From the sequence record SRR20825010_4822: a stretch of DNA of 62,717 bases; one strand, given 5' to 3'. Below are positions 10,873-62,717 of this stretch, piece by piece (the stretch's first letter is position 1; each line of letters begins with the position of its first letter). Made by a program: the position numbers and the translations under genes. The notes under the pieces are model-generated. The model did no database searches and was not told where the DNA came from. It saw only the letters and a program-made list of their open reading frames with translations.

Positions 10873-12069
10873 TTGTCGCTAAACCAAGGTGTGAATGTCC
10901 TTGTTGCAGTGGTTATCACACCATTACTTTACCAGAACTTAGGTGAAGCCCAATTCGGTTTAGTCGGTTTAGGGCTTACGGTTGTAATGTTCTTAAGCGT
11001 CCTTGTCAATTACGGGTTTTATTTAAACGGGCCGAAGCGGCTAGCATTAACCTTAGGAGATACCGATAAACAGCAAGAGTTGGTAAATGAGATTATAGTT
11101 ACCAAGCTGATGCTTTCTGTTCTGCTCAGTTTGTTGATATTAATTGCTATTTATGGCTTCAATTTTTTCCCTGATTATTCTTCCATACTTTCCTTGTCGT
11201 TAGTGATTTTGCTAGGGGAAGCCCTGTTTCCGATGTTTATTTTGCAGGGGCTCGACAAGCTTTCCTTGGTTTCAGTTGCCAATGCCATATCTAAGCTGTT
11301 TTATTTAATTACCGTAGTCATAGTAGTGAGAGAAGGCAGTGATGCTAAATGGGTTAATTTTTTATTCGGAGCTTCTTCGGTCATTGTCAATTTCGGTTTG
11401 GTAGTGTTTGTCTATCGAAAGTGGGGGCTCAGGTTTTATTGGGTGAGCGCGGCAAAGGTATTTAATAGAATAAAGGAGAATTTTCAGTTTTTCCTTTCAA
11501 CTATTGGTGGACATATTTCAGTTCATGGAGGTTTGCTGATTCTAAGCAACTTTGTTTCAGACACAGAGTTAGGGAGATATAGTTTGGCACAACGGGTAGC
11601 CTTTTTATTGAGAATGATTCCTATTTTTTTAGCCCAATCTATTCTGCAGAATGCCTCAAGACTTTATGATGAGGATAAATCTGCATTTAATAAGTATTTA
11701 TTTAAAGCTTACAAAGGTGGGTTGGCATTAACTTTTGCTATCGGATTGGGGTTTGCAATACTTTCTCCATACATCATCCTAATTTTGGGTGGGGAATATG
11801 TCGATTATAGCGCTAATGTGTTAAGATTATTGTGCTTTATTCCATTTTTTGGAATGTTGAATATTGCCAATATGATTAAAATTTTAGTGGCGGAGCGGAA
11901 AGAGATTTTGGCCAAAGCCACCTGGCTAACGACAATTTTTATGCTTGTTATTGCCATGTTGGGTAGTTATTATTATGGAGGCTATGGGCTGGCCGTAGCA
12001 CTACTTCTTTCTGAAATGTTAAGTTTTGCAGTGCATTATTATTTATTAAAGAAGTATGGTGTTGAGTAA
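10873..12069 (+). CDS. wzx: Wzx oligosaccharide flippase (true start probably upstream, see findings)
   Basis: Multi-TM; PLLYQNLGEAQFG, NYGF, LGRYSLAQR. Confidence 0.85.
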   Translation: MSLNQGVNVLVAVVITPLLYQNLGEAQFGLVGLGLTVVMFLSVLVNYGFYLNGPKRLALTLGDTDKQQELVNEIIVTKLMLSVLLSLLILIAIYGFNFFPDYSSILSLSLVILLGEALFPMFILQGLDKLSLVSVANAISKLFYLITVVIVVREGSDAKWVNFLFGASSVIVNFGLVVFVYRKWGLRFYWVSAAKVFNRIKENFQFFLSTIGGHISVHGGLLILSNFVSDTELGRYSLAQRVAFLLRMIPIFLAQSILQNASRLYDEDKSAFNKYLFKAYKGGLALTFAIGLGFAILSPYIILILGGEYVDYSANVLRLLCFIPFFGMLNIANMIKILVAERKEILAKATWLTTIFMLVIAMLGSYYYGGYGLAVALLLSEMLSFAVHYYLLKKYGVE

Positions 12070-12980
12070 TGATGGGATTAAATAAAATTGCAATTATTTT
12101 GGTGAACTGGAATGCCTATGACCTTACGGTTCGATGCATTAATAGTTTAGAGAATATAGGTTTCCCAAGCATAAATATACTTTTGGTAGACAATGCTTCA
12201 GCGGATAATTCGGGCCCTAGACTTAGAGAGAGGTTTAAGGAAGTTACCTTTATTCAGAATACAGAGAACTTAGGCTTCACAGGAGGGAATAACGTAGCGA
12301 TTACACAGGCTTTGGATATGGGCTTTGAGTACATCATGCTTTTGAATAATGATACAGAGGTCACGGAAAGTTTTATCGAACCATTGCTTTTGGCTATAGA
12401 AGGGAATGATAAAGTTGCAGCAGTTCAGCCGTTGATCTTGGAACTGAATCGGAAAGACTTGATATGGAGTGCGGGTGGAGATACGGATCGATTCTTTGGT
12501 TTGTCGAAAACACGTTTTTTATATCAAGAGCTAGACGCAGTAAGGTCAAGCATTAAGTCAGACACGGATTGGATTACAGGCTGTTGTATTTTAGTTCGAT
12601 CTTCGGTTATCCGCGAGATTGGTGCTTTGGATAATAAGTTCTTTGCCTACCATGAAGATGTAGATTGGTCCATTCGGATGCGTAAAGCAGGGTATGAGTT
12701 AAAGGTGGCTGCAGAAAGTGTAATCTTTCATCTTTCCATGGCCTCCTTAAAAAGTGACACCAAGCAGAAAGAAGGGTTTCTGTCGCCCTTTATGCATTAC
12801 CTTCATGCTAGAAATCATTTGTTTTTGGTTAGAAAACACAAAGATTATTTTAACCCCGTAGGCGTTTGGGGTTATCAATTTTTTAAACTGGTTGGCTATT
12901 CGACTTACTTTATTGTCAGAGGTCGATTTAACAAGCTAAGGTCTGCTATGAAAGGGTTTAAAGATGGGTTAACAAAATGA
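12069..12980 (+). CDS. GT2 glycosyltransferase (WbbL/RfbF-like)
   Basis: IILVNWN, VDNAS, NLGFTGGNN, LLNNDT, FFAYHEDVDW. Confidence 0.9.
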   Translation: MMGLNKIAIILVNWNAYDLTVRCINSLENIGFPSINILLVDNASADNSGPRLRERFKEVTFIQNTENLGFTGGNNVAITQALDMGFEYIMLLNNDTEVTESFIEPLLLAIEGNDKVAAVQPLILELNRKDLIWSAGGDTDRFFGLSKTRFLYQELDAVRSSIKSDTDWITGCCILVRSSVIREIGALDNKFFAYHEDVDWSIRMRKAGYELKVAAESVIFHLSMASLKSDTKQKEGFLSPFMHYLHARNHLFLVRKHKDYFNPVGVWGYQFFKLVGYSTYFIVRGRFNKLRSAMKGFKDGLTK

Positions 12981-55663: not shown

Positions 55664-56644
55664 TTAAAGGTTGTGCATAGATTTAAGTTCTTTAACGCTC
55701 CAGTCTAGCGTTTCGTTCACAGGCCGGAACTCAAAGTTTAAAGCTTTTTTCACTTTGTCATTTCTGAAGTGATAATGCATACGTGATAGTTTTGCGGTAT
55801 CACTTGTGATTAATGCACTTTGGCGCATTATTCTAGAGCGTACGAACTCTAATTTTACGGCTACTTTGAGCATCCAGTAAGGAACTGGTTTGGTGGGCGG
55901 TTTTTTGCCGAAACGGCTGGCTACTTCGGCAAAGAAATCTCTAAACTCTTTTGTGCCTCCGTTAAGTACGAATCTTTCATTCTGAATATTTGCACTAAGT
56001 AATTTAACACAGATTTCAGCTACATCGCGTACATCTACAAAGTTGATGGTGCCTTCTGGGTGGAATGTTTTACTGTCGAAGGCGTATTTAAAAACAGAAG
56101 TACTTCCGCTGCCCCAAAGCCCAGGGCCTAATACTACGGAAGGGTTTACTATCTTTACATTCAAGCCTTCTTGCGCCCCACGCCAAACTTCTAACTCTTG
56201 TAAGTATTTAGATCGTGCATAAATGGAGTCATATTCTGTGCCTTCCCATTTATCTTTTTCGTCAATAAATTGCTGTCCAGGTTTTCTGCCTAAAGCCGCC
56301 ACAGAACTTATTTGGACAAAGTTTTTCACTTCAGCTTTTAGACAAGCGTTTACCAGATCGGCAGTGCCCTGTACATTGGTTTTGTACATTCGATCCTCAT
56401 CTCTTTTATCAAAAGAAATAATCGCAGCCCCATGAATTACTCCGTCAATACCTTCAAGTGCTTCGAGCAGAAAGGTGGTGTCGTTCATATCACCCTCTAC
56501 CCATTCAATTTGGTTAGCAATATCTTCGATCAAAGTCAGCTGGCTACTTCCGCGTTTGACCGCCCGAATGGACTGACCATTTTTAATAAGTTCTCTACAA
56601 ATAAAGCTACCGAGTAAGCCCGTAGCGCCAGTAACAAAAACCAT
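55664..56644 (-). CDS. NAD-dependent epimerase/dehydratase (dihydroflavonol-reductase-like SDR)
   Basis: GATGLLG, NVQGT, ISSVAALG, YARSK, VNPSVVLG, VDVRDVA. Confidence 0.88.
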   Translation of the reverse strand: MVFVTGATGLLGSFICRELIKNGQSIRAVKRGSSQLTLIEDIANQIEWVEGDMNDTTFLLEALEGIDGVIHGAAIISFDKRDEDRMYKTNVQGTADLVNACLKAEVKNFVQISSVAALGRKPGQQFIDEKDKWEGTEYDSIYARSKYLQELEVWRGAQEGLNVKIVNPSVVLGPGLWGSGSTSVFKYAFDSKTFHPEGTINFVDVRDVAEICVKLLSANIQNERFVLNGGTKEFRDFFAEVASRFGKKPPTKPVPYWMLKVAVKLEFVRSRIMRQSALITSDTAKLSRMHYHFRNDKVKKALNFEFRPVNETLDWSVKELKSMHNL

Positions 56645-56648
56645 AACT

Positions 56649-57389
56649 CTAAAGGGAATTATTTAGAAGATCTAAGTCCATTAATTTTTTAAAGTACTTT
56701 GTTTTCACCGCTTCTTTCAAGAGGTCAATATGACCCATATTGTGACAATCGGTACCTACTAATTTCACCGCTTTCATGTCAATGAGCTTTTCTGCAAACT
56801 TTTGCACAGGCTTTGAGTAACAACCTGTAAGAGCAATGATGTTCAGTTGTAGAATTACATTTCTATCAATCAATTCATCCAGTAAATATTCACTTTGCAT
56901 CAAGTATAAATAGCGTTCTGGATGGGCGAAAACAGGTTTATATCCTTTTAAACTTAGCTTGAAGGTGACTTCTTTTAACTGTGGTGGCATGTTCATAAAC
57001 GGGGTTTCGAACAAAATGTGTTTATTGCCAAAAGTCATTAATGGAGCCCCTGAGTCTATCAGTTCTACGAATGATTCATCGAGGTAATATTCTGTGGCAG
57101 CCTCTAACTGAATATTGATTCCTTCTTTTTTGATCGCTTCACGCATGATTTCCAGCCCAGCATAAATATTCTCGGGGGAGTTGTCGTAAGTACCAGGCAT
57201 GGAGTGGGGAGTGGTAATTACCTTCTGATAGCCAAGGGCTTCCATTTCACGTAAAACGGTAAGCGATTCTTCGATAGACTGCACACCGTCATCAATCGCA
57301 GGAATTAAATGCGAATGAATATCTGTTTTGATAGGCAAAACAGAGGCGGGAGAAGTATCCTTTGGCTTTAAAAAAGAAAGTATACTCAA
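56649..57389 (-). CDS. CpsB/CapC-family PHP tyrosine-protein phosphatase
   Basis: DIHSH--P--DDG, TTPH, AHPERY, GTDCH. Confidence 0.9.
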   Translation of the reverse strand: MSILSFLKPKDTSPASVLPIKTDIHSHLIPAIDDGVQSIEESLTVLREMEALGYQKVITTPHSMPGTYDNSPENIYAGLEIMREAIKKEGINIQLEAATEYYLDESFVELIDSGAPLMTFGNKHILFETPFMNMPPQLKEVTFKLSLKGYKPVFAHPERYLYLMQSEYLLDELIDRNVILQLNIIALTGCYSKPVQKFAEKLIDMKAVKLVGTDCHNMGHIDLLKEAVKTKYFKKLMDLDLLNNSL

Positions 57390-57931
57390 AATAAGGGTGC
57401 GTTTTTATACGCTGCAAAATTAGGTAAAAGTTTGTCCTTTTCAGACACGATTGGGTTTTCTATTTGCCAGTCGATATTTAGCGCTGGGTCATTCCATAAA
57501 ATACCGCCTTCAGATGCTTTATTGTAGTAGTTAGTACACTTGTATGAAAAAACACTATCCTCCAAAGCTAAGAAACCATGAGCGAAACCAGCAGGTACAA
57601 GGAATAGGTTATGTCTTTTGGCATCTAAAATTACGGTATGGTGCTTACTGAAAGTAGGGGACTTAGGCCTTAGGTCTACTGCTACGTCCATTACTTTTCC
57701 CAAAGCTACTCTTACAAGTTTTGCTTGCGCGTAAGGCTCGGTTTGGAAGTGAAGTCCACGTAATGTGCCCTTTACAGAAAACGATTCGTTGTCCTGAACA
57801 AAGTCAGTTTGTATTCCGAGGTCCTCAAAAGCTTTTTTTCGATATGATTCAAAAAAATACCCTCGGTCATCTCCAAATACAGTAGACTCAATTTCGTAAA
57901 GGCCATCAAAGCCTGTTTCTATAATTTTCAT
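57386..57931 (-). CDS. rfbC: dTDP-4-dehydrorhamnose 3,5-epimerase
   Basis: DDRGYFFE, QDNES, LRGLHFQ, DVAVDLR, GFAHGF. Confidence 0.95.
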   Translation of the reverse strand: MKIIETGFDGLYEIESTVFGDDRGYFFESYRKKAFEDLGIQTDFVQDNESFSVKGTLRGLHFQTEPYAQAKLVRVALGKVMDVAVDLRPKSPTFSKHHTVILDAKRHNLFLVPAGFAHGFLALEDSVFSYKCTNYYNKASEGGILWNDPALNIDWQIENPIVSEKDKLLPNFAAYKNAPLF

Positions 57932-58097
57932 TGCTAAAAGATTCCTTTCAAACTTAAGCTGTTAAGCTTTCTTATCAAACGATAAGGTGTTACAAAACTA
58001 TTATACCCTTAAATGGTGTTTATACTTTTTAGTTTCATGACGCAATTTCTGGGTTGAATTTAGAAATGGCTTCGATAAGTAGTAATTTTGATGCTTT

Positions 58098-59297
58098 ATG
58101 GGAGGATATTTAACAAGGGATACGGACGAAAAAACAGCAGTGATGGTCGCGCTCATCACTAAAGGCCAACCCGAGGAAAAGGTAATAGAGTATTTGGATG
58201 AATTGGCCTTCTTGGCCGAAACGCTGGGGCTTGAGGTTGTAAAGTCATTTACACAACGGATGGAAAGGCCAGAGGTAAAGACTTTTGTAGGTAAGGGTAA
58301 GCTCGAAGAGATTAAAACTTACATTATAGCGGAAGGCGTTAAAACAATTATTTTTGATGATGATCTTTCTCCCTCTCAGTTACGAAATTTAGAAAAAGAA
58401 CTGGATGTTAAAATCTACGACCGTAGTTTACTCATCCTAGATATCTTTCTCTATCGTGCGCAAACAGCTCAAGCCAAAACTCAGGTGGAACTGGCGAGAT
58501 CCAAATATTTATTACCTCGATTAACCAGAATGTGGACTCACTTGGAAAGACAAAGAGGTGGAACCGGCACAAGAGGAGGGGCTGGTGAAATGGAGATTGA
58601 GACTGACCGTAGGATTGTCAGAAATCAGATTGATGTGCTGAAAAAGAAGCTGGAAAAAATTGAAATGCAGAATGCAGTTCAGCGTAAATCCAGAACAAGT
58701 ATTGTGCGTGTAGCTTTGGTTGGGTACACCAACGTGGGTAAATCTACCCTCATGCGCCTAATGACCAAAGCGGATGTATTGGCTGAAAATAAACTTTTCG
58801 CTACCGTGGATTCCACGGTTAGAAAAATAGCGATTGACGATATTCCTTTCCTGTTGTCCGATACCGTAGGTTTTATTAGAAAACTGCCTACACACTTGAT
58901 CGAATCTTTTAAATCTACTTTGGATGAGGTAAGAGAGGCTGATATTCTTTTACACGTAGTAGATGTTTCGCACCCTTATTTTCAAGACCAGATGGAAACG
59001 GTAAACCAAACTTTGGTAGATCTTGGTGCAGCAGATAAACCAACAATTATCGTTTTCAATAAAATTGACAAGTTGGTTGAATCTTTAGATCCAGAAATAG
59101 AGGAGGAAATGGAACATCCGCCAATGACATTGGAAAGGCTGAAAAAAACCTATTTAAATGCTGAAGGTGAAAGCGTTGTGTTTATTTCGGCAGAGAAAAA
59201 AGAGAATATTGCAGAAATGCGTGAAGTGATTTTCGAGAAGGTGAAAAAGCAGCACATGACCATTTTCCCCAACTACTTGAAGGACACATATTATTAA
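58098..59297 (+). CDS. hflX: Ribosome-splitting GTPase HflX
   Basis: GYTNVGKST, LFAT, DTVGF, NKID; promoter TAATTTTG 58083-58090. Confidence 0.97.
   Translation: MGGYLTRDTDEKTAVMVALITKGQPEEKVIEYLDELAFLAETLGLEVVKSFTQRMERPEVKTFVGKGKLEEIKTYIIAEGVKTIIFDDDLSPSQLRNLEKELDVKIYDRSLLILDIFLYRAQTAQAKTQVELARSKYLLPRLTRMWTHLERQRGGTGTRGGAGEMEIETDRRIVRNQIDVLKKKLEKIEMQNAVQRKSRTSIVRVALVGYTNVGKSTLMRLMTKADVLAENKLFATVDSTVRKIAIDDIPFLLSDTVGFIRKLPTHLIESFKSTLDEVREADILLHVVDVSHPYFQDQMETVNQTLVDLGAADKPTIIVFNKIDKLVESLDPEIEEEMEHPPMTLERLKKTYLNAEGESVVFISAEKKENIAEMREVIFEKVKKQHMTIFPNYLKDTYY
59262..59297 (+). repeat. Direct repeat copy 1 (functional hflX 3' end)
   Basis: ATTTTCCCCAACTACTTGAAGGACACATATTATTAA = IFPNYLKDTYY*. Confidence 0.9.
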
Positions 59298-59315
59298 AGG
59301 ATTAATATACTTCAA

Positions 59316-59345
59316 CTGATAGACCGTTATTTTTGGGTCTATCAG
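59316..59345. terminator. Hairpin just after hflX, possible terminator
   Basis: Perfect 10-bp IR CTGATAGACC / GGTCTATCAG with 10-nt loop; no clear U-tract. Confidence 0.5.
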
Positions 59346-59521
59346 AATGAGGTGATTATCGTTTTTTCTTTAGAATAAATTCTTATTTCTTAGTACCCCC
59401 GTGTCCGCCCGCTACTATCATAATGATCCGAACATTCAAATAAATAAATTTGAAAAACTGGATGACTGGATTACGCATGTACGCTTTTTGGCGCTTTGTT
59501 ATGGTTTGTTTCATAGTATTT

Positions 59522-60979
59522 CTATTCTGGAATTAACCACCAAAATGGTTTCATTTTGGCTTTGTAAATAAATGCATAGTGTAGGGAAAGCTTTACCCAA
59601 TGACCGGCAAGCCCAATATCTCCAAATGTCTTTTTAATGTCCCTTCCGCCTGTTTTTTCATATTTTTTGTAATCTGGAACAATAGGGAAAGTTGTGATAC
59701 TAACGCCACTGCCAGTTATAAGCCCATAACCTGCGGAAGCAATACATGCTGCACCCATATTCCCTAAGGAACCTTTATGGTTTAATGACTCTTTTCCGCT
59801 TTTGATGGAATCGATAATATTGTCTGCTACTAGTTTAGCTGTAATACCTGATGGCATTCCTGTCCTTGGAGGTGCTGGAAATATTTCTGTTCCATTCGGG
59901 TTTTTTCTAGGTTTTGAAATACTATGCGGTGGCGCAAAAGCAATGCCTGGCGCGAAAATGTTTGGATAGTTCGGGTTCTGATAGGTTTCCGGCCAATCTT
60001 GAACTGTCCATTCCTCGTATGGCTTGGCGGTATAGTCGGCATCTACAACCATAAAGCCTTTGAAAAGCTTAGGAGTTATATCTCCTCCTTGTTGGTCATA
60101 AGCTTTGAATCCATGACCCGAAAACGCTGGAATCAGCATGGCGAAATCAAACTCTTCGGTGTTGTGTTCTCCTTCGAGATTTTCATAGAAGGCTTTTCCT
60201 TGATCTATTTTATTGACACCTGCCCCTAAAATCCATTCTATTTCTCTATCCCGGAAAACCATTTCTACCATATCACTTGATTTCATTGGTTTCCCTTGAT
60301 AAGACAGCAGCATTCCATCCATGCCAAAGTCTCCTAAAGAGGACTCATTGGTAATCCATTTTATGGCTACTTTATCCCGAACCTTTCTTCTCCTTAGTTC
60401 TTGCTCTACATTGAGAATATATTCAAAAGCAGCTCCTTGACAGGTAGCTTTTGCATGCCCTGTTCCTATAAGTACTTTTAGTTTGGAGGAGGAATTCTTT
60501 GCTTTTTCAATTAGCTTTTCCAATCCACTTGCGGCATGCTGTGCATGATCATAGGTGCAGACGGAATAAACATCATCTGTACCAGGGTTAAGTCCCTCTG
60601 TTAAGTCAAAAGCTAGTTTTGGTCCTGTTGCATTGACGAGGTAGTCGTAAGCAACTTTCTCTGTTTTCCCCTTCTGTTCACCAAAAACATATTCCACAAC
60701 TACGTATGGTGGGGTACTGTCATCTCCATCAGGATGGAATGACACAACTTTGGCTTGCTTAAAGTTGATGCCTTTCTTTTTGTAGAGCGGTTCCAATGGA
60801 AAAGTAATCTGCTCTGGTTGCATCCTTCCTATCCCCACCCAAATATTTGAGGGAATCCATTGGTAGTTCCGGTTTGGCGAAACGACCAGCACTTCATGTT
60901 TCTTTGAGAGCTTTCTTCTCAAATGGGAAGCGGCAGTATGGCCCGCTATTCCCGATCCTAATATTACGACTTTAGACAT
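59522..60979 (-). CDS. sqr: Sulfide:quinone oxidoreductase, type IV (SqrD)-like
   Basis: GSGIAG FAD motif, WIPSNIWVG, SVCT, ATCQGAAFEY, PPRTGMPSG, AACIAS, C-terminal PFWWLIPE. Confidence 0.88.
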   Translation of the reverse strand: MSKVVILGSGIAGHTAASHLRRKLSKKHEVLVVSPNRNYQWIPSNIWVGIGRMQPEQITFPLEPLYKKKGINFKQAKVVSFHPDGDDSTPPYVVVEYVFGEQKGKTEKVAYDYLVNATGPKLAFDLTEGLNPGTDDVYSVCTYDHAQHAASGLEKLIEKAKNSSSKLKVLIGTGHAKATCQGAAFEYILNVEQELRRRKVRDKVAIKWITNESSLGDFGMDGMLLSYQGKPMKSSDMVEMVFRDREIEWILGAGVNKIDQGKAFYENLEGEHNTEEFDFAMLIPAFSGHGFKAYDQQGGDITPKLFKGFMVVDADYTAKPYEEWTVQDWPETYQNPNYPNIFAPGIAFAPPHSISKPRKNPNGTEIFPAPPRTGMPSGITAKLVADNIIDSIKSGKESLNHKGSLGNMGAACIASAGYGLITGSGVSITTFPIVPDYKKYEKTGGRDIKKTFGDIGLAGHWVKLSLHYAFIYKAKMKPFWWLIPE

Positions 60980-61026
60980 GTTGCTCTATTTATTGAACAA
61001 GTTTACGACTAGTAATAATAGTATTA

Positions 61027-61071
61027 TGACACAAATGTTACATATAAAAAATAAGGGTAACATTTGTTACA
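61027..61071. promoter_or_regulatory. Two Crp/Fnr-type boxes in the divergent sqr / cytochrome c promoter region
   Basis: TGACAC-AAAT-GTTACA (61027-61042) and GGTAAC-ATTT-GTTACA (61056-61071). Confidence 0.7.
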
Positions 61072-61117
61072 GAACTTTCTATTGATTTAGTTTTACTTTA
61101 TTGAAAAAGATAGAATT

Positions 61118-61732
61118 ATGAGGCGACTAATAATCCCACTTATTTTGATTGTAACGGGCTGTACTAATCATAAAGGAACTTCCACACCATCCATTAATGA
61201 GTTAACAGAATTGGCGATGAATGAGGGGGGTGAAATTTCAATTTTGGCACAAAAGACACTCGGTAGCCAATTGAAAAAATCGATCTCAGATAATGGAGTT
61301 ACTTCTGCGGTGCAGTTTTGCAATGTGGCCGCATACCCTATTCTTGATACCTTGAAAACGGTACCTAAAGCTTCAATAAGAAGAGCTTCACTTAGCGCTA
61401 GGAATCAGAAGGACAAACCCTCAGATGTGGAACGGGTGATACTTGAAAAGTATGCACAATCGCTGGAGAAGGGTGGAGATTTAAGCCCAGTAGTGGAAGT
61501 GCTTAATGAAAGCGAGATACTTTATGCTAAGCCAATTTTATTAGATGGTCCTCTTTGTTTGAACTGTCATGGTCAGGCAGGTAGTCAGGTTACTTCAGAA
61601 ACACTAAAGTCGATACAGGAATTGTACCCAAATGACAATGCTCTAAATCATAAAATGGGTGATTTGAGAGGAATATGGAGTATCACATTTGATATCAGTG
61701 AGCTGACCAATTACCTAAAAAATATCAAGTAA
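61118..61732 (+). CDS. DUF3365 (Tll0287-like) c-type heme lipoprotein
   Basis: Lipobox VTGC, AVQFCN, RNQKDKP, CLNCHG heme motif, YPND-A, GDLRGIWS. Confidence 0.82.
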   Translation: MRRLIIPLILIVTGCTNHKGTSTPSINELTELAMNEGGEISILAQKTLGSQLKKSISDNGVTSAVQFCNVAAYPILDTLKTVPKASIRRASLSARNQKDKPSDVERVILEKYAQSLEKGGDLSPVVEVLNESEILYAKPILLDGPLCLNCHGQAGSQVTSETLKSIQELYPNDNALNHKMGDLRGIWSITFDISELTNYLKNIK

Positions 61733-61776
61733 CTTCTTTCTGCTAACCTTAGGAACCCGGTTTTTCCCTTGACAGG

Positions 61777-61792
61777 TGTAACAAATGTTGCC
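61777..61792. promoter_or_regulatory. Crp/Fnr-type box upstream of the DUF2202 gene
   Basis: TGTAAC-AAAT-GTTGCC. Confidence 0.65.
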
Positions 61793-61840
61793 AATACTCA
61801 TTTGGCAATTGGCTTTATTTGAATAAAAATATCATAGATC

Positions 61841-62476
61841 ATGAAAAATTTATTCAATTACATATTGTTAAGCTTATCCGTGGTAACGCTCTCGTGTAGT
61901 GATTCCAGTGATGAGATGATTACTACAGACGATGAATTAATCAATATACAAATTTGGGCACTTCCAGTAGAGCCTTTGAGTGAAACTGAAATAGAGGCGC
62001 TTTTATTTATGCGAGAGGAAGAAAAATTAGCAAGGGATGTGTATGATCATCTATATACGATTTGGTCATCAAAAATCTTTAATAATATCTCAGCGAGCGA
62101 GCAGTCTCATACAGACGCAGTACGAACACTCTTAAATAAATATAAATTGGAGGATCCCGCAATTAATAGTGCCCCTGGAGTATTCGTCAATCAAGAACTT
62201 CAAACATTGTATACAGAATTAATTCAGATTGGATCGGTGAGTTTAGAGAGTGCGCTTAAAGTAGGTGCGGCTATTGAAGAAATTGATATTTTGGACCTTC
62301 AAAGAGAGTTAGGTTCCAATGTGGATAATGAAGACATTATTTTAGTTTTTGAAAATTTGATGAAGGGGTCAAAAAATCACCTTAAATCTTTTGTGCTGAA
62401 CTTAAAAAATCAAAATATTGCTTATATCCCTCAATATTTAACTCAAGAAGAATTTGATGCGATTATCAATTCTTAA
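61841..62476 (+). CDS. DUF2202 ferritin-like lipoprotein
   Basis: Lipobox TLSC; MREEEKLARDVY, SEQSH, IEEIDI, GSKNHL. Confidence 0.85.
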   Translation: MKNLFNYILLSLSVVTLSCSDSSDEMITTDDELINIQIWALPVEPLSETEIEALLFMREEEKLARDVYDHLYTIWSSKIFNNISASEQSHTDAVRTLLNKYKLEDPAINSAPGVFVNQELQTLYTELIQIGSVSLESALKVGAAIEEIDILDLQRELGSNVDNEDIILVFENLMKGSKNHLKSFVLNLKNQNIAYIPQYLTQEEFDAIINS

Positions 62477-62616
62477 TTTCAGAGCAGCTGGGTATCTATA
62501 AACTCCTGTTACATTTGTCATAATCTATCCCCAGCAGGGTTTTATTAGCCATTGGTTGTCTTTATCATTGTTTACCAAGAGAAGCGTCTGTCTTTGTGGT
62601 AAAGTCTCCTAAAGCG

Positions 62617-62652
62617 ATCTTCCCAAATTACTTGAAAGACACATATTATTAA
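62617..62652 (+). repeat. Direct repeat copy 2 (displaced hflX 3' end)
   Basis: ATCTTCCCAAATTACTTGAAAGACACATATTATTAA also reads IFPNYLKDTYY*. Confidence 0.9.
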
Positions 62653-62661
62653 TTAATTTTG
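62632..62661 (+). promoter_or_regulatory. Promoter of tRNA-Arg (TTG-N19-TAATTTTG)
   Basis: TTG 62632-62634, TAATTTTG 62654-62661, tRNA starts at 62681. Confidence 0.65.
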
Positions 62662-62680
62662 TTCCTCCAAAAAAAGGAAT

Positions 62681-62717
62681 GGTCCCGTAGTTCAACGGAT
62701 AGAATAGAAGTTTCCTA
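62681..62717 (+). tRNA. tRNA-Arg(CCT), 3' half truncated by window end
   Basis: GGTCCCG-TA-GTTC-AACGGATA-GAAT-A-GAAGT-TT-CCT-A: acceptor 5' strand, D-arm and anticodon CCT at 62714-62716. Confidence 0.88.

Follow-up and report, generated by a model that had tools for sequence, protein, structure and literature searches.

The right end of the window (by which we mean the whole 62,717-nt stretch of sequence record SRR20825010_4822) raises a question that is simple to state: how did 3.3 kb of DNA come to lie between the GTPase gene hflX and the gene for tRNA-Arg(CCT), and why does the end of hflX occur on both sides of it? A first-pass annotation had read this islet as an element integrated into the 3' end of hflX. 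The insertion itself stands. As to its origin, we favour one exchange inside the duplicated 36-nt segment, after which the two copies would have split a coding and a promoter role between them and the islet would have spread through its flanks; we put this account a little above an even chance. The features on which the argument turns are these:

58098 to 59297, plus strand: hflX, intact, a 399-aa GTPase (Pfam GTP-bdg_N, GTP-bdg_M and MMR_HSR1)
59262 to 59297, plus strand: left repeat copy, the last 11 codons and stop of hflX, the tail in use
59298 to 62616, no strand assigned: inserted islet of 3,319 nt, missing from empty-site relatives
62617 to 62652, plus strand: right repeat copy, a non-coding relic of the hflX tail and predicted upstream half of the tRNA-Arg promoter
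62654 to 62661, plus strand: predicted -7 box TAATTTTG (TAnnTTTG, Bacteroidota sigma-A), starting 1 nt after the stop codon of the right copy
62681 to 62717, plus strand: tRNA-Arg(CCT), 5' 37 nt only, cut by the window end

An insertion bounded by two copies of the hflX tail

HflX from the window shares 99% amino-acid (aa) identity with HflX of Roseivirga echinicomitans KMM 6058 (locus L001) and of a Roseivirga metagenome-assembled genome (MAG; L002), and the source organism is placed in Roseivirga, near R. echinicomitans. The two tail copies, ATTTTCCCCAACTACTTGAAGGACACATATTATTAA on the left and ATCTTCCCAAATTACTTGAAAGACACATATTATTAA on the right, form a direct repeat identical at 32/36 positions, the longest in the interval 56000-62717. 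Its four mismatches (ATT/ATC, CCC/CCA, AAC/AAT and AAG/AAA) are all third-position and all synonymous, and both copies, the non-coding right one included, spell IFPNYLKDTYY and a stop; similarity ends at the Ile codon on the left side and at the stop codon on the right. By chance, a match of 32/36 would arise about 2e-4 times in the window, an arithmetic estimate that takes a match probability of about 0.29 and about 2e9 same-strand pairs. The repeat, its synonymous mismatches and its abrupt end at the Ile codon are thus as the first-pass annotation described them, and the duplicate is real. The same two-copy structure is present in the KMM 6058 genome and in the MAG; single Logan contigs from two further studies (X2, 10,291 nt; X3, 8,481 nt) cover 58900-62717 end to end, and contigs of a seawater metagenome (X8) bridge both islet junctions. 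No joints or empty-site forms appeared among the X1, X2, X3 and X8 contigs, which are blind to rare forms. The truncated tRNA gene, which begins after a 28-nt gap from the right copy and for which ARAGORN gave no call, is identical to the complete gene in L001 and L002.

That the 3.3 kb were inserted follows from the comparison with relatives, a set of 14 Roseivirga genome loci plus metagenome loci. Empty sites, in which the hflX stop is followed by 7-32 nt, about 28 nt in close relatives, and then the tRNA, were found at 8 of the 14 genome loci (L003-L008, L010 and L013) and at four metagenome loci as well (L059, L060, L062 and L063), so relatives are not uniformly occupied. The full islet with a second tail copy is confined to the window, L001 and L002, and a one-gene variant occurs in L061, an R. 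seohaensis-like metagenome contig. R. echinicomitans KMM 6058 has the islet, and the type strains of R. seohaensis and R. ehrenbergii are without it. Among 36 genomes of the genus, the hflX tail pattern is present in 30 and occurs twice only in G001 and G002, the same two that alone have a close homologue of the islet's Tll0287-like gene. Across at least two Roseivirga species groups, the islet is today polymorphic for presence or absence. The empty-site tails, moreover, are of the right-copy type, with 1-3 differences from the right copy versus 4-6 from the left, just as had been predicted of an element that displaces the original gene end to its far boundary.

The L061 variant shows where foreign and host DNA meet. 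In this 2,976-nt contig, hflX has 99.1% DNA identity to that of R. seohaensis (L005), and the interval between hflX and the tRNA holds a Tll0287-like gene only, 78% identical in aa to the window's. Its right junction (TAAAGCG plus the repeat) is identical to the window's, and its left end is unrelated. The right copy, extended by 7 nt leftward and 9 nt rightward, is identical between L061 and L001, although the Tll0287-like genes themselves share only about 79% of their DNA. Compared with the L005 tail, the right copy matches at 36/36 positions; the left copy has three differences, all in its last 13 nt, preceded by 194 nt with none, and third positions differ at 3/12 in the tail versus 6/388 elsewhere (P=0.001). 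The boundary between foreign and host sequence is therefore placed inside the repeat, within positions 1-23. In L061, then, the tail in use is linked to the islet, with a host-type tail at the far boundary, as the first-pass annotation had proposed. That proposal does not carry over to the window, where the tail in use shows no excess of divergence over the remainder of hflX (4/12 third positions differ versus a background of 0.19-0.31, not significant).

Divergence of the copies and a probable tRNA promoter

The two copies are much closer in a relative than in the window: identity is 35/36 in L001, where they differ at a single position (AAC/AAT), 33/36 in L061 and 32/36 in the window. In L001, the left copy is the same as the empty-site tail found in L004, and the right copy is the same as the R. 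seohaensis tail (L005). The window's ATT, CCC and AAG (positions 3, 9 and 21 of the left copy) are derived with respect to the empty-site tails and L001, and are common to L002. With the empty-site tails taken as ancestral, the left copies have changed at four positions in the window, three in L002, three in L061 and none in L001, and the right copies at one, one, none and none, respectively. From the single difference in L001 and the derived state of the left-copy changes it follows that the repeat began as near-identical copies, and a crossover of some 2 nt is unsupported. At repeat position 12, the echinicomitans clade has the host-type base (C) in the left copy and the islet-type base (T) in the right; hence the host/islet boundary in this clade lies to the right of position 12. 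Residual similarity to hflX upstream of the right copy (11/27 nt in register, by eye) was not considered significant.

What the first-pass annotation missed is that the duplicated segment overlaps the probable promoter of the tRNA. Promoters of Bacteroidota have a -33 TTG, set about 19 nt upstream of the -7 box. A TTG at 62632-62634, inside the right copy, precedes TAATTTTG by a 19-nt spacer, and another 19 nt separate the box from the tRNA 5' end. The pattern TAnnTTTG is described as the sigma-A -7 box of flavobacteria (PMC9723704). In the loci of the genus, T+TAnnTTT[G/A] directly follows the stop in 19/20 tRNA-adjacent tail copies, and of the same 20, 17 have TTG and 2 have CTG as the Leu codon 19 nt upstream of the box; where the tail copy has no adjacent tRNA, TTG was found in 2/10, both of them cases of recent insertion. 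Third positions of the empty-site tail are also conserved above the hflX background, with 1/12 differing between L004 and L005 versus 0.45 (P=0.009) and 1/12 between L001 and L005 versus 0.46 (P=0.007). A sigma-70 promoter scan is uninformative for Bacteroidota. The 36-nt segment is thus probably dual in function, at once the end of hflX and part of the tRNA-Arg(CCT) promoter, and with a promoter box adjoining the stop and a -33 TTG within the tail, both copies would be needed.

Routes of entry and spread

The account we favour starts from the empty site, where the last 8 or so codons of hflX would also hold the -33 half of the tRNA-Arg(CCT) promoter. Given this overlap, we propose that no insertion could settle between the two genes unless the overlap was duplicated. 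The islet would have entered by one recombination event, with the exchange inside the 36-nt segment, leaving two near-identical copies. The route may have been an att-type site-specific reaction, its integrase since lost or supplied in trans, or else the entry of a circular intermediate by a single crossover; an exchange in the 36-mer is favoured, and it could be either enzymatic or RecA-driven. After duplication, the left copy would only encode IFPNYLKDTYY and its stop and drift at synonymous sites, and the right copy would only drive the tRNA and stay almost unchanged. Today the islet moves between lineages through homologous recombination of an ordinary kind in its flanks.

This last step has left a visible tract. 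From about 58750 onward to the window end, identity between the window and L002, of a sister species, is 99-100%, and upstream it is 92-94%; between the window and L001 it is about 92-93% throughout. The left end of the tract lies about 500 nt inside hflX, away from the repeat, and to judge from this pattern homologous recombination carries half of hflX together with the islet between lineages, with no integrase required. Within the tract, the Tll0287-like gene (61151-61746) is only about 91% identical between the window and L002, and on this profile it is a second, nested recombination patch with a third allele. A contrast was also noted between species: over the 5' 653 nt of hflX (58098-58750), the echinicomitans group and the seohaensis/ehrenbergii group (L005/L006) are 75% identical, as opposed to 86-87% over the 3' half of the gene and 88% over the upstream 4 kb, and hflX is therefore a mosaic between these species.

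Several observations weigh against the favoured account. As the first-pass annotation had stated, there is no integrase between the copies, and the islet (59298-62616) has no recombinase, excision or conjugation gene either. The larger integrase-bearing elements that it expected at the same codon did not turn up. In the 36 genomes of the genus there was no integrase- or attP-bearing element and no third copy of the 36-mer; a scan of 401 family genomes gave 4 matches to the tail, all expected, and no integrase element; among 63 hflX loci examined up to 10 kb downstream, a second tail copy was seen in L001, L002 and L061 only, again with no integrase element; and a pattern scan of IMG/VR for the hflX tail returned 0 matches, each of these scans being a sample only. 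Enzymatic integration is therefore left with no direct support. Unrelated cargo of 1.3-1.6 kb occupies the same slot in L009, L011 and L012 with no repeat, so the slot can fill without duplication. The in-repeat boundaries of L061 and the echinicomitans clade could equally be due to an exchange confined to the repeat or to an old haplotype of the islet, with recombination having homogenised the flanks up to the heterology. Finally, the association with the Leu codon is phylogenetically non-independent, and the promoter function is predicted from comparative sequence.

A rival reading is an origin in which no recombinase ever took part. A duplication-plus-insertion, or a RecA-mediated single crossover of a circle bearing the 36-mer, would have happened once and survived as the only kind of insertion that spares both the HflX C-terminus and the tRNA promoter, with spread and loss, including deletion between the repeats, left to homologous recombination. 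The repeat runs from about 50 nt upstream of the likely transcription start to exactly the stop codon, so its limits coincide with functional ones; the scans found no integrase or attP; a homologous-recombination tract is seen; the hflX-tRNA junction is a general variable slot; and in L065 the promoter and tRNA 5' region have been tandemly multiplied by another process. Set against this, the data hold no independent precedent for a one-step 36-bp duplication around foreign DNA, a reaction confined to the repeat would account for the sharp boundaries seen inside it in two lineages, and it must still be explained how the circle first gained its 36-mer. We regard such an origin as possible though rather unlikely.

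Polarity could also be reversed, with the islet ancestral to the echinicomitans and seohaensis groups, the empty sites being precise deletions between the repeats and the divergence of the repeat reflecting an old polymorphism. The two islet lineages are indeed deeply diverged (Tll0287-like proteins 78% identical in aa) yet have a common right junction, and deletion between 36-bp repeats would give back a perfect empty site. But a double tail occurs in just 2 of the 36 genus genomes, the same two alone have the close Tll0287-like homologue, and over the 4-kb flank L003 and L004 fall outside the tightest clade, which unites the window with L001 and L002, so that at least 3-4 independent losses would be required. 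Such a history, which we consider improbable, would moreover settle polarity only and leave the origin of the repeat unexplained.

Slightly less probable still is that the 36-nt segment is the att site of an undescribed marine Cytophagales recombination system, one that swaps small promoter-equipped cassettes between hflX and tRNA-Arg without a resident integrase. Features that would fit are an imperfect dyad in the repeat, CTTTCCAA-ATTAC-TTGAAAG, as a possible core site, and the palindrome GTAAC-N4-GTTAC on the cargo modules. Full-text literature searches turned up no description of hflX as a target of integration; what they did return concerns, by title and abstract, mycobacterial prophages and CRISPR tools.

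The mechanism offered by the first-pass annotation, a serine or IntDOT-like integrase crossing over at about 2 nt (AT) and a wholly foreign 12-codon tail, now looks very improbable. The window mismatches do begin at base 3, and the tail in use of L061 does have an excess of differences (P=0.001). The L001 copies, however, differ at 1/36, which already contradicts it, and those of L061 agree over their first 23 nt; three of the four window mismatches are derived in the left copy of the window and L002 only, in a number that fits the hflX background; and no integrase was found at the hflX site in the scans above. Insertions of the IntDOT or serine-integrase type resemble the islet in their Bacteroidota host only, and differ in that repeat identity here is 33-35/36 in relatives, not 2-7 nt. 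That the duplicate is an assembly artefact, a possibility that the annotation had flagged, has next to no chance: the X1 run, which matches the window exactly, is fragmented at about 4x depth with no listed piece bridging 59274-59320 and lends it no support, and five independent sources with the structure (L001, L002, X2, X3 and X8) already refute it.

Known systems offer partial likenesses to the islet. Insertion hotspots in chromosomes lie between core genes and are filled and exchanged by homologous recombination in their flanks. The islet resembles them in the varied cargo of the hflX-tRNA slot across Roseivirga and in the tract that carries it, but their cargo is not usually bordered by an exact repeat that restores a coding end. 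Cis-mobilizable elements (CIMEs) are islands that keep attL and attR and have lost their integration and transfer genes (PMC6323972). Like the islet, they are bounded by direct repeats at the 3' end of a housekeeping gene, which stays intact, have no integrase or transfer genes, and carry small cargo. Unlike it, they have a cognate integrase from an integrative and conjugative element or an integrative and mobilizable element, whereas none is known or was found for the hflX site, the repeats here are putative att sites, and the target is hflX overlapping a predicted tRNA promoter. The islet is thus att-flanked and integrase-less, CIME-like but not filed as a CIME. Islands that tyrosine integrases place at the 3' ends of genes and tRNAs carry a replacement end. 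Like the islet, they show both empty and filled sites, have boundary repeats some tens of nt long and leave the function of their target in place, but the islet is without an integrase and is found on the 5' side of the tRNA, not at its 3' end. One such island is in the neighbourhood: L002 (14750-15979 onward; G002:C7) has a 27-kb or so integrative element at the 3' end of tRNA-Arg(CCT), with a tyrosine integrase gene (Arm-DNA-bind_5, SAM_5 and Phage_integrase) 95 nt past the tRNA, followed by helix-turn-helix and DUF3987 genes. At its far end, homology to L001 (dinB side) resumes about 27.1 kb on, with the last 15 nt or so of the tRNA copied. This element is separate from the islet, since L001 has the islet without the element. 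For sequence past the tRNA, where the window stops, L001 and L002 stood in as proxies.

Cargo, neighbouring features and significance

The islet and the sequence just 3' of hflX hold the following:

59316 to 59345, plus strand: 10-bp perfect hairpin (CTGATAGACC / GGTCTATCAG), just 3' of the hflX stop
59522 to 60979, minus strand: SQR-like flavoprotein gene, 485 aa (Pyr_redox_2)
61118 to 61732, plus strand: Tll0287-like (PF11845) protein gene, with CLNCH (CxxCH) and a lipoprotein-type N-terminus
61841 to 62476, plus strand: DUF2202 (PF09968) protein gene, with a lipoprotein-type N-terminus
62610 to 62616, plus strand: TAAAGCG, the 7-nt right end of the islet, common to the L061 variant

The hairpin may be a substitute terminator; the terminator scan did not report it, its loop of more than 8 nt being beyond the limit of that scan. 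An Rfam search of 59200-62717 gave two matches only, both at chance level. Family matches among the open reading frames (ORFs) of the islet are limited to the three genes listed. The best solved relatives of the SQR-like protein are the sulfide:quinone reductases of A. ferrooxidans and Aquifex (E about 3e-35), and residues 3-415 align to 3hyv. Homology thus suggests SQR function, against which it must be said that the match to NCBIfam SQR_III is weak and far under the cut-off (score 63.6; cut-off 525). The Tll0287-like product, from its CxxCH and leader, looks like a haem-c lipoprotein, and its gene is the sole cargo gene in common with the L061 variant. In this sense the cargo is modular: the Tll0287-like gene is the core, and the SQR-like and DUF2202 genes may or may not accompany it. 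As a set the cargo could plausibly serve periplasmic sulfide sensing or detoxification.

Neither composition nor homology points to a donor. The GC content of the islet (0.34-0.43) is like that of its flanks and bears no mark of foreign origin. SQR-like homologues are present in 8/81 family genomes, and among the SQR-like loci examined in the donor search none places one beside a Tll0287-like or DUF2202 gene; for DUF2202, the best match beyond the islet reaches 57% identity. Of 14 other Cytophagales loci, two (L124 and L129) have DUF2202 adjoining a Tll0287-like gene, which hints at a functional pairing of these two independent of the SQR-like gene. The GTAAC-N4-GTTAC palindrome occurs three times in the whole window (at most 1 mismatch), two of these in the islet (61057-61070 and 61778-61791), with weaker copies near 61030-61043 and 62508-62521. 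They are found ahead of both the Tll0287-like and the DUF2202 gene, and in the promoter region from which the SQR-like and Tll0287-like genes diverge, and a copy is retained upstream of the L061 Tll0287-like gene. The palindrome is probably a shared operator; the islet contains no regulator gene.

Other occupants of the hflX-tRNA slot are diverse. L009 has a 381-aa lipoprotein-like ORF (11226-12371); L011 (11274-12673) and L012 (11268-12544) each have a small ORF plus a common ORF of about 271 aa, with a fresh TTG/TAnnTTTG pair ahead of the tRNA; and in L014 hflX and the tRNA are about 150 nt apart. None of these four has a tail remnant before the tRNA. In the metagenome Roseivirga L065 (11200-11900), the junction holds two disrupted tRNA-Arg(CCT) pseudo-copies, each with hairpin-like inserts and its own TAnnTTTG box, with a small GIY-YIG-like ORF between them and the intact tRNA following.

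In sum, the islet is a real but fairly ordinary small accessory island, and the locus does not reveal a new mobility mechanism. If the 36-mer were truly an att site, hflX would be a new integration target. In any case, the hflX/tRNA-Arg(CCT) junction joins the list of variable slots in the Bacteroidota, and R. echinicomitans KMM 6058, on the one hand, and the type strains of R. seohaensis and R. ehrenbergii, on the other, provide a natural strain pair for asking whether the SQR-like, Tll0287-like and DUF2202 proteins have a role in sulfide tolerance. The more general lesson is how a slot may open where two functions, one of them predicted here, overlap on the same bases: a 36-nt duplication would leave one copy coding and the other regulatory, each under different constraints thereafter.

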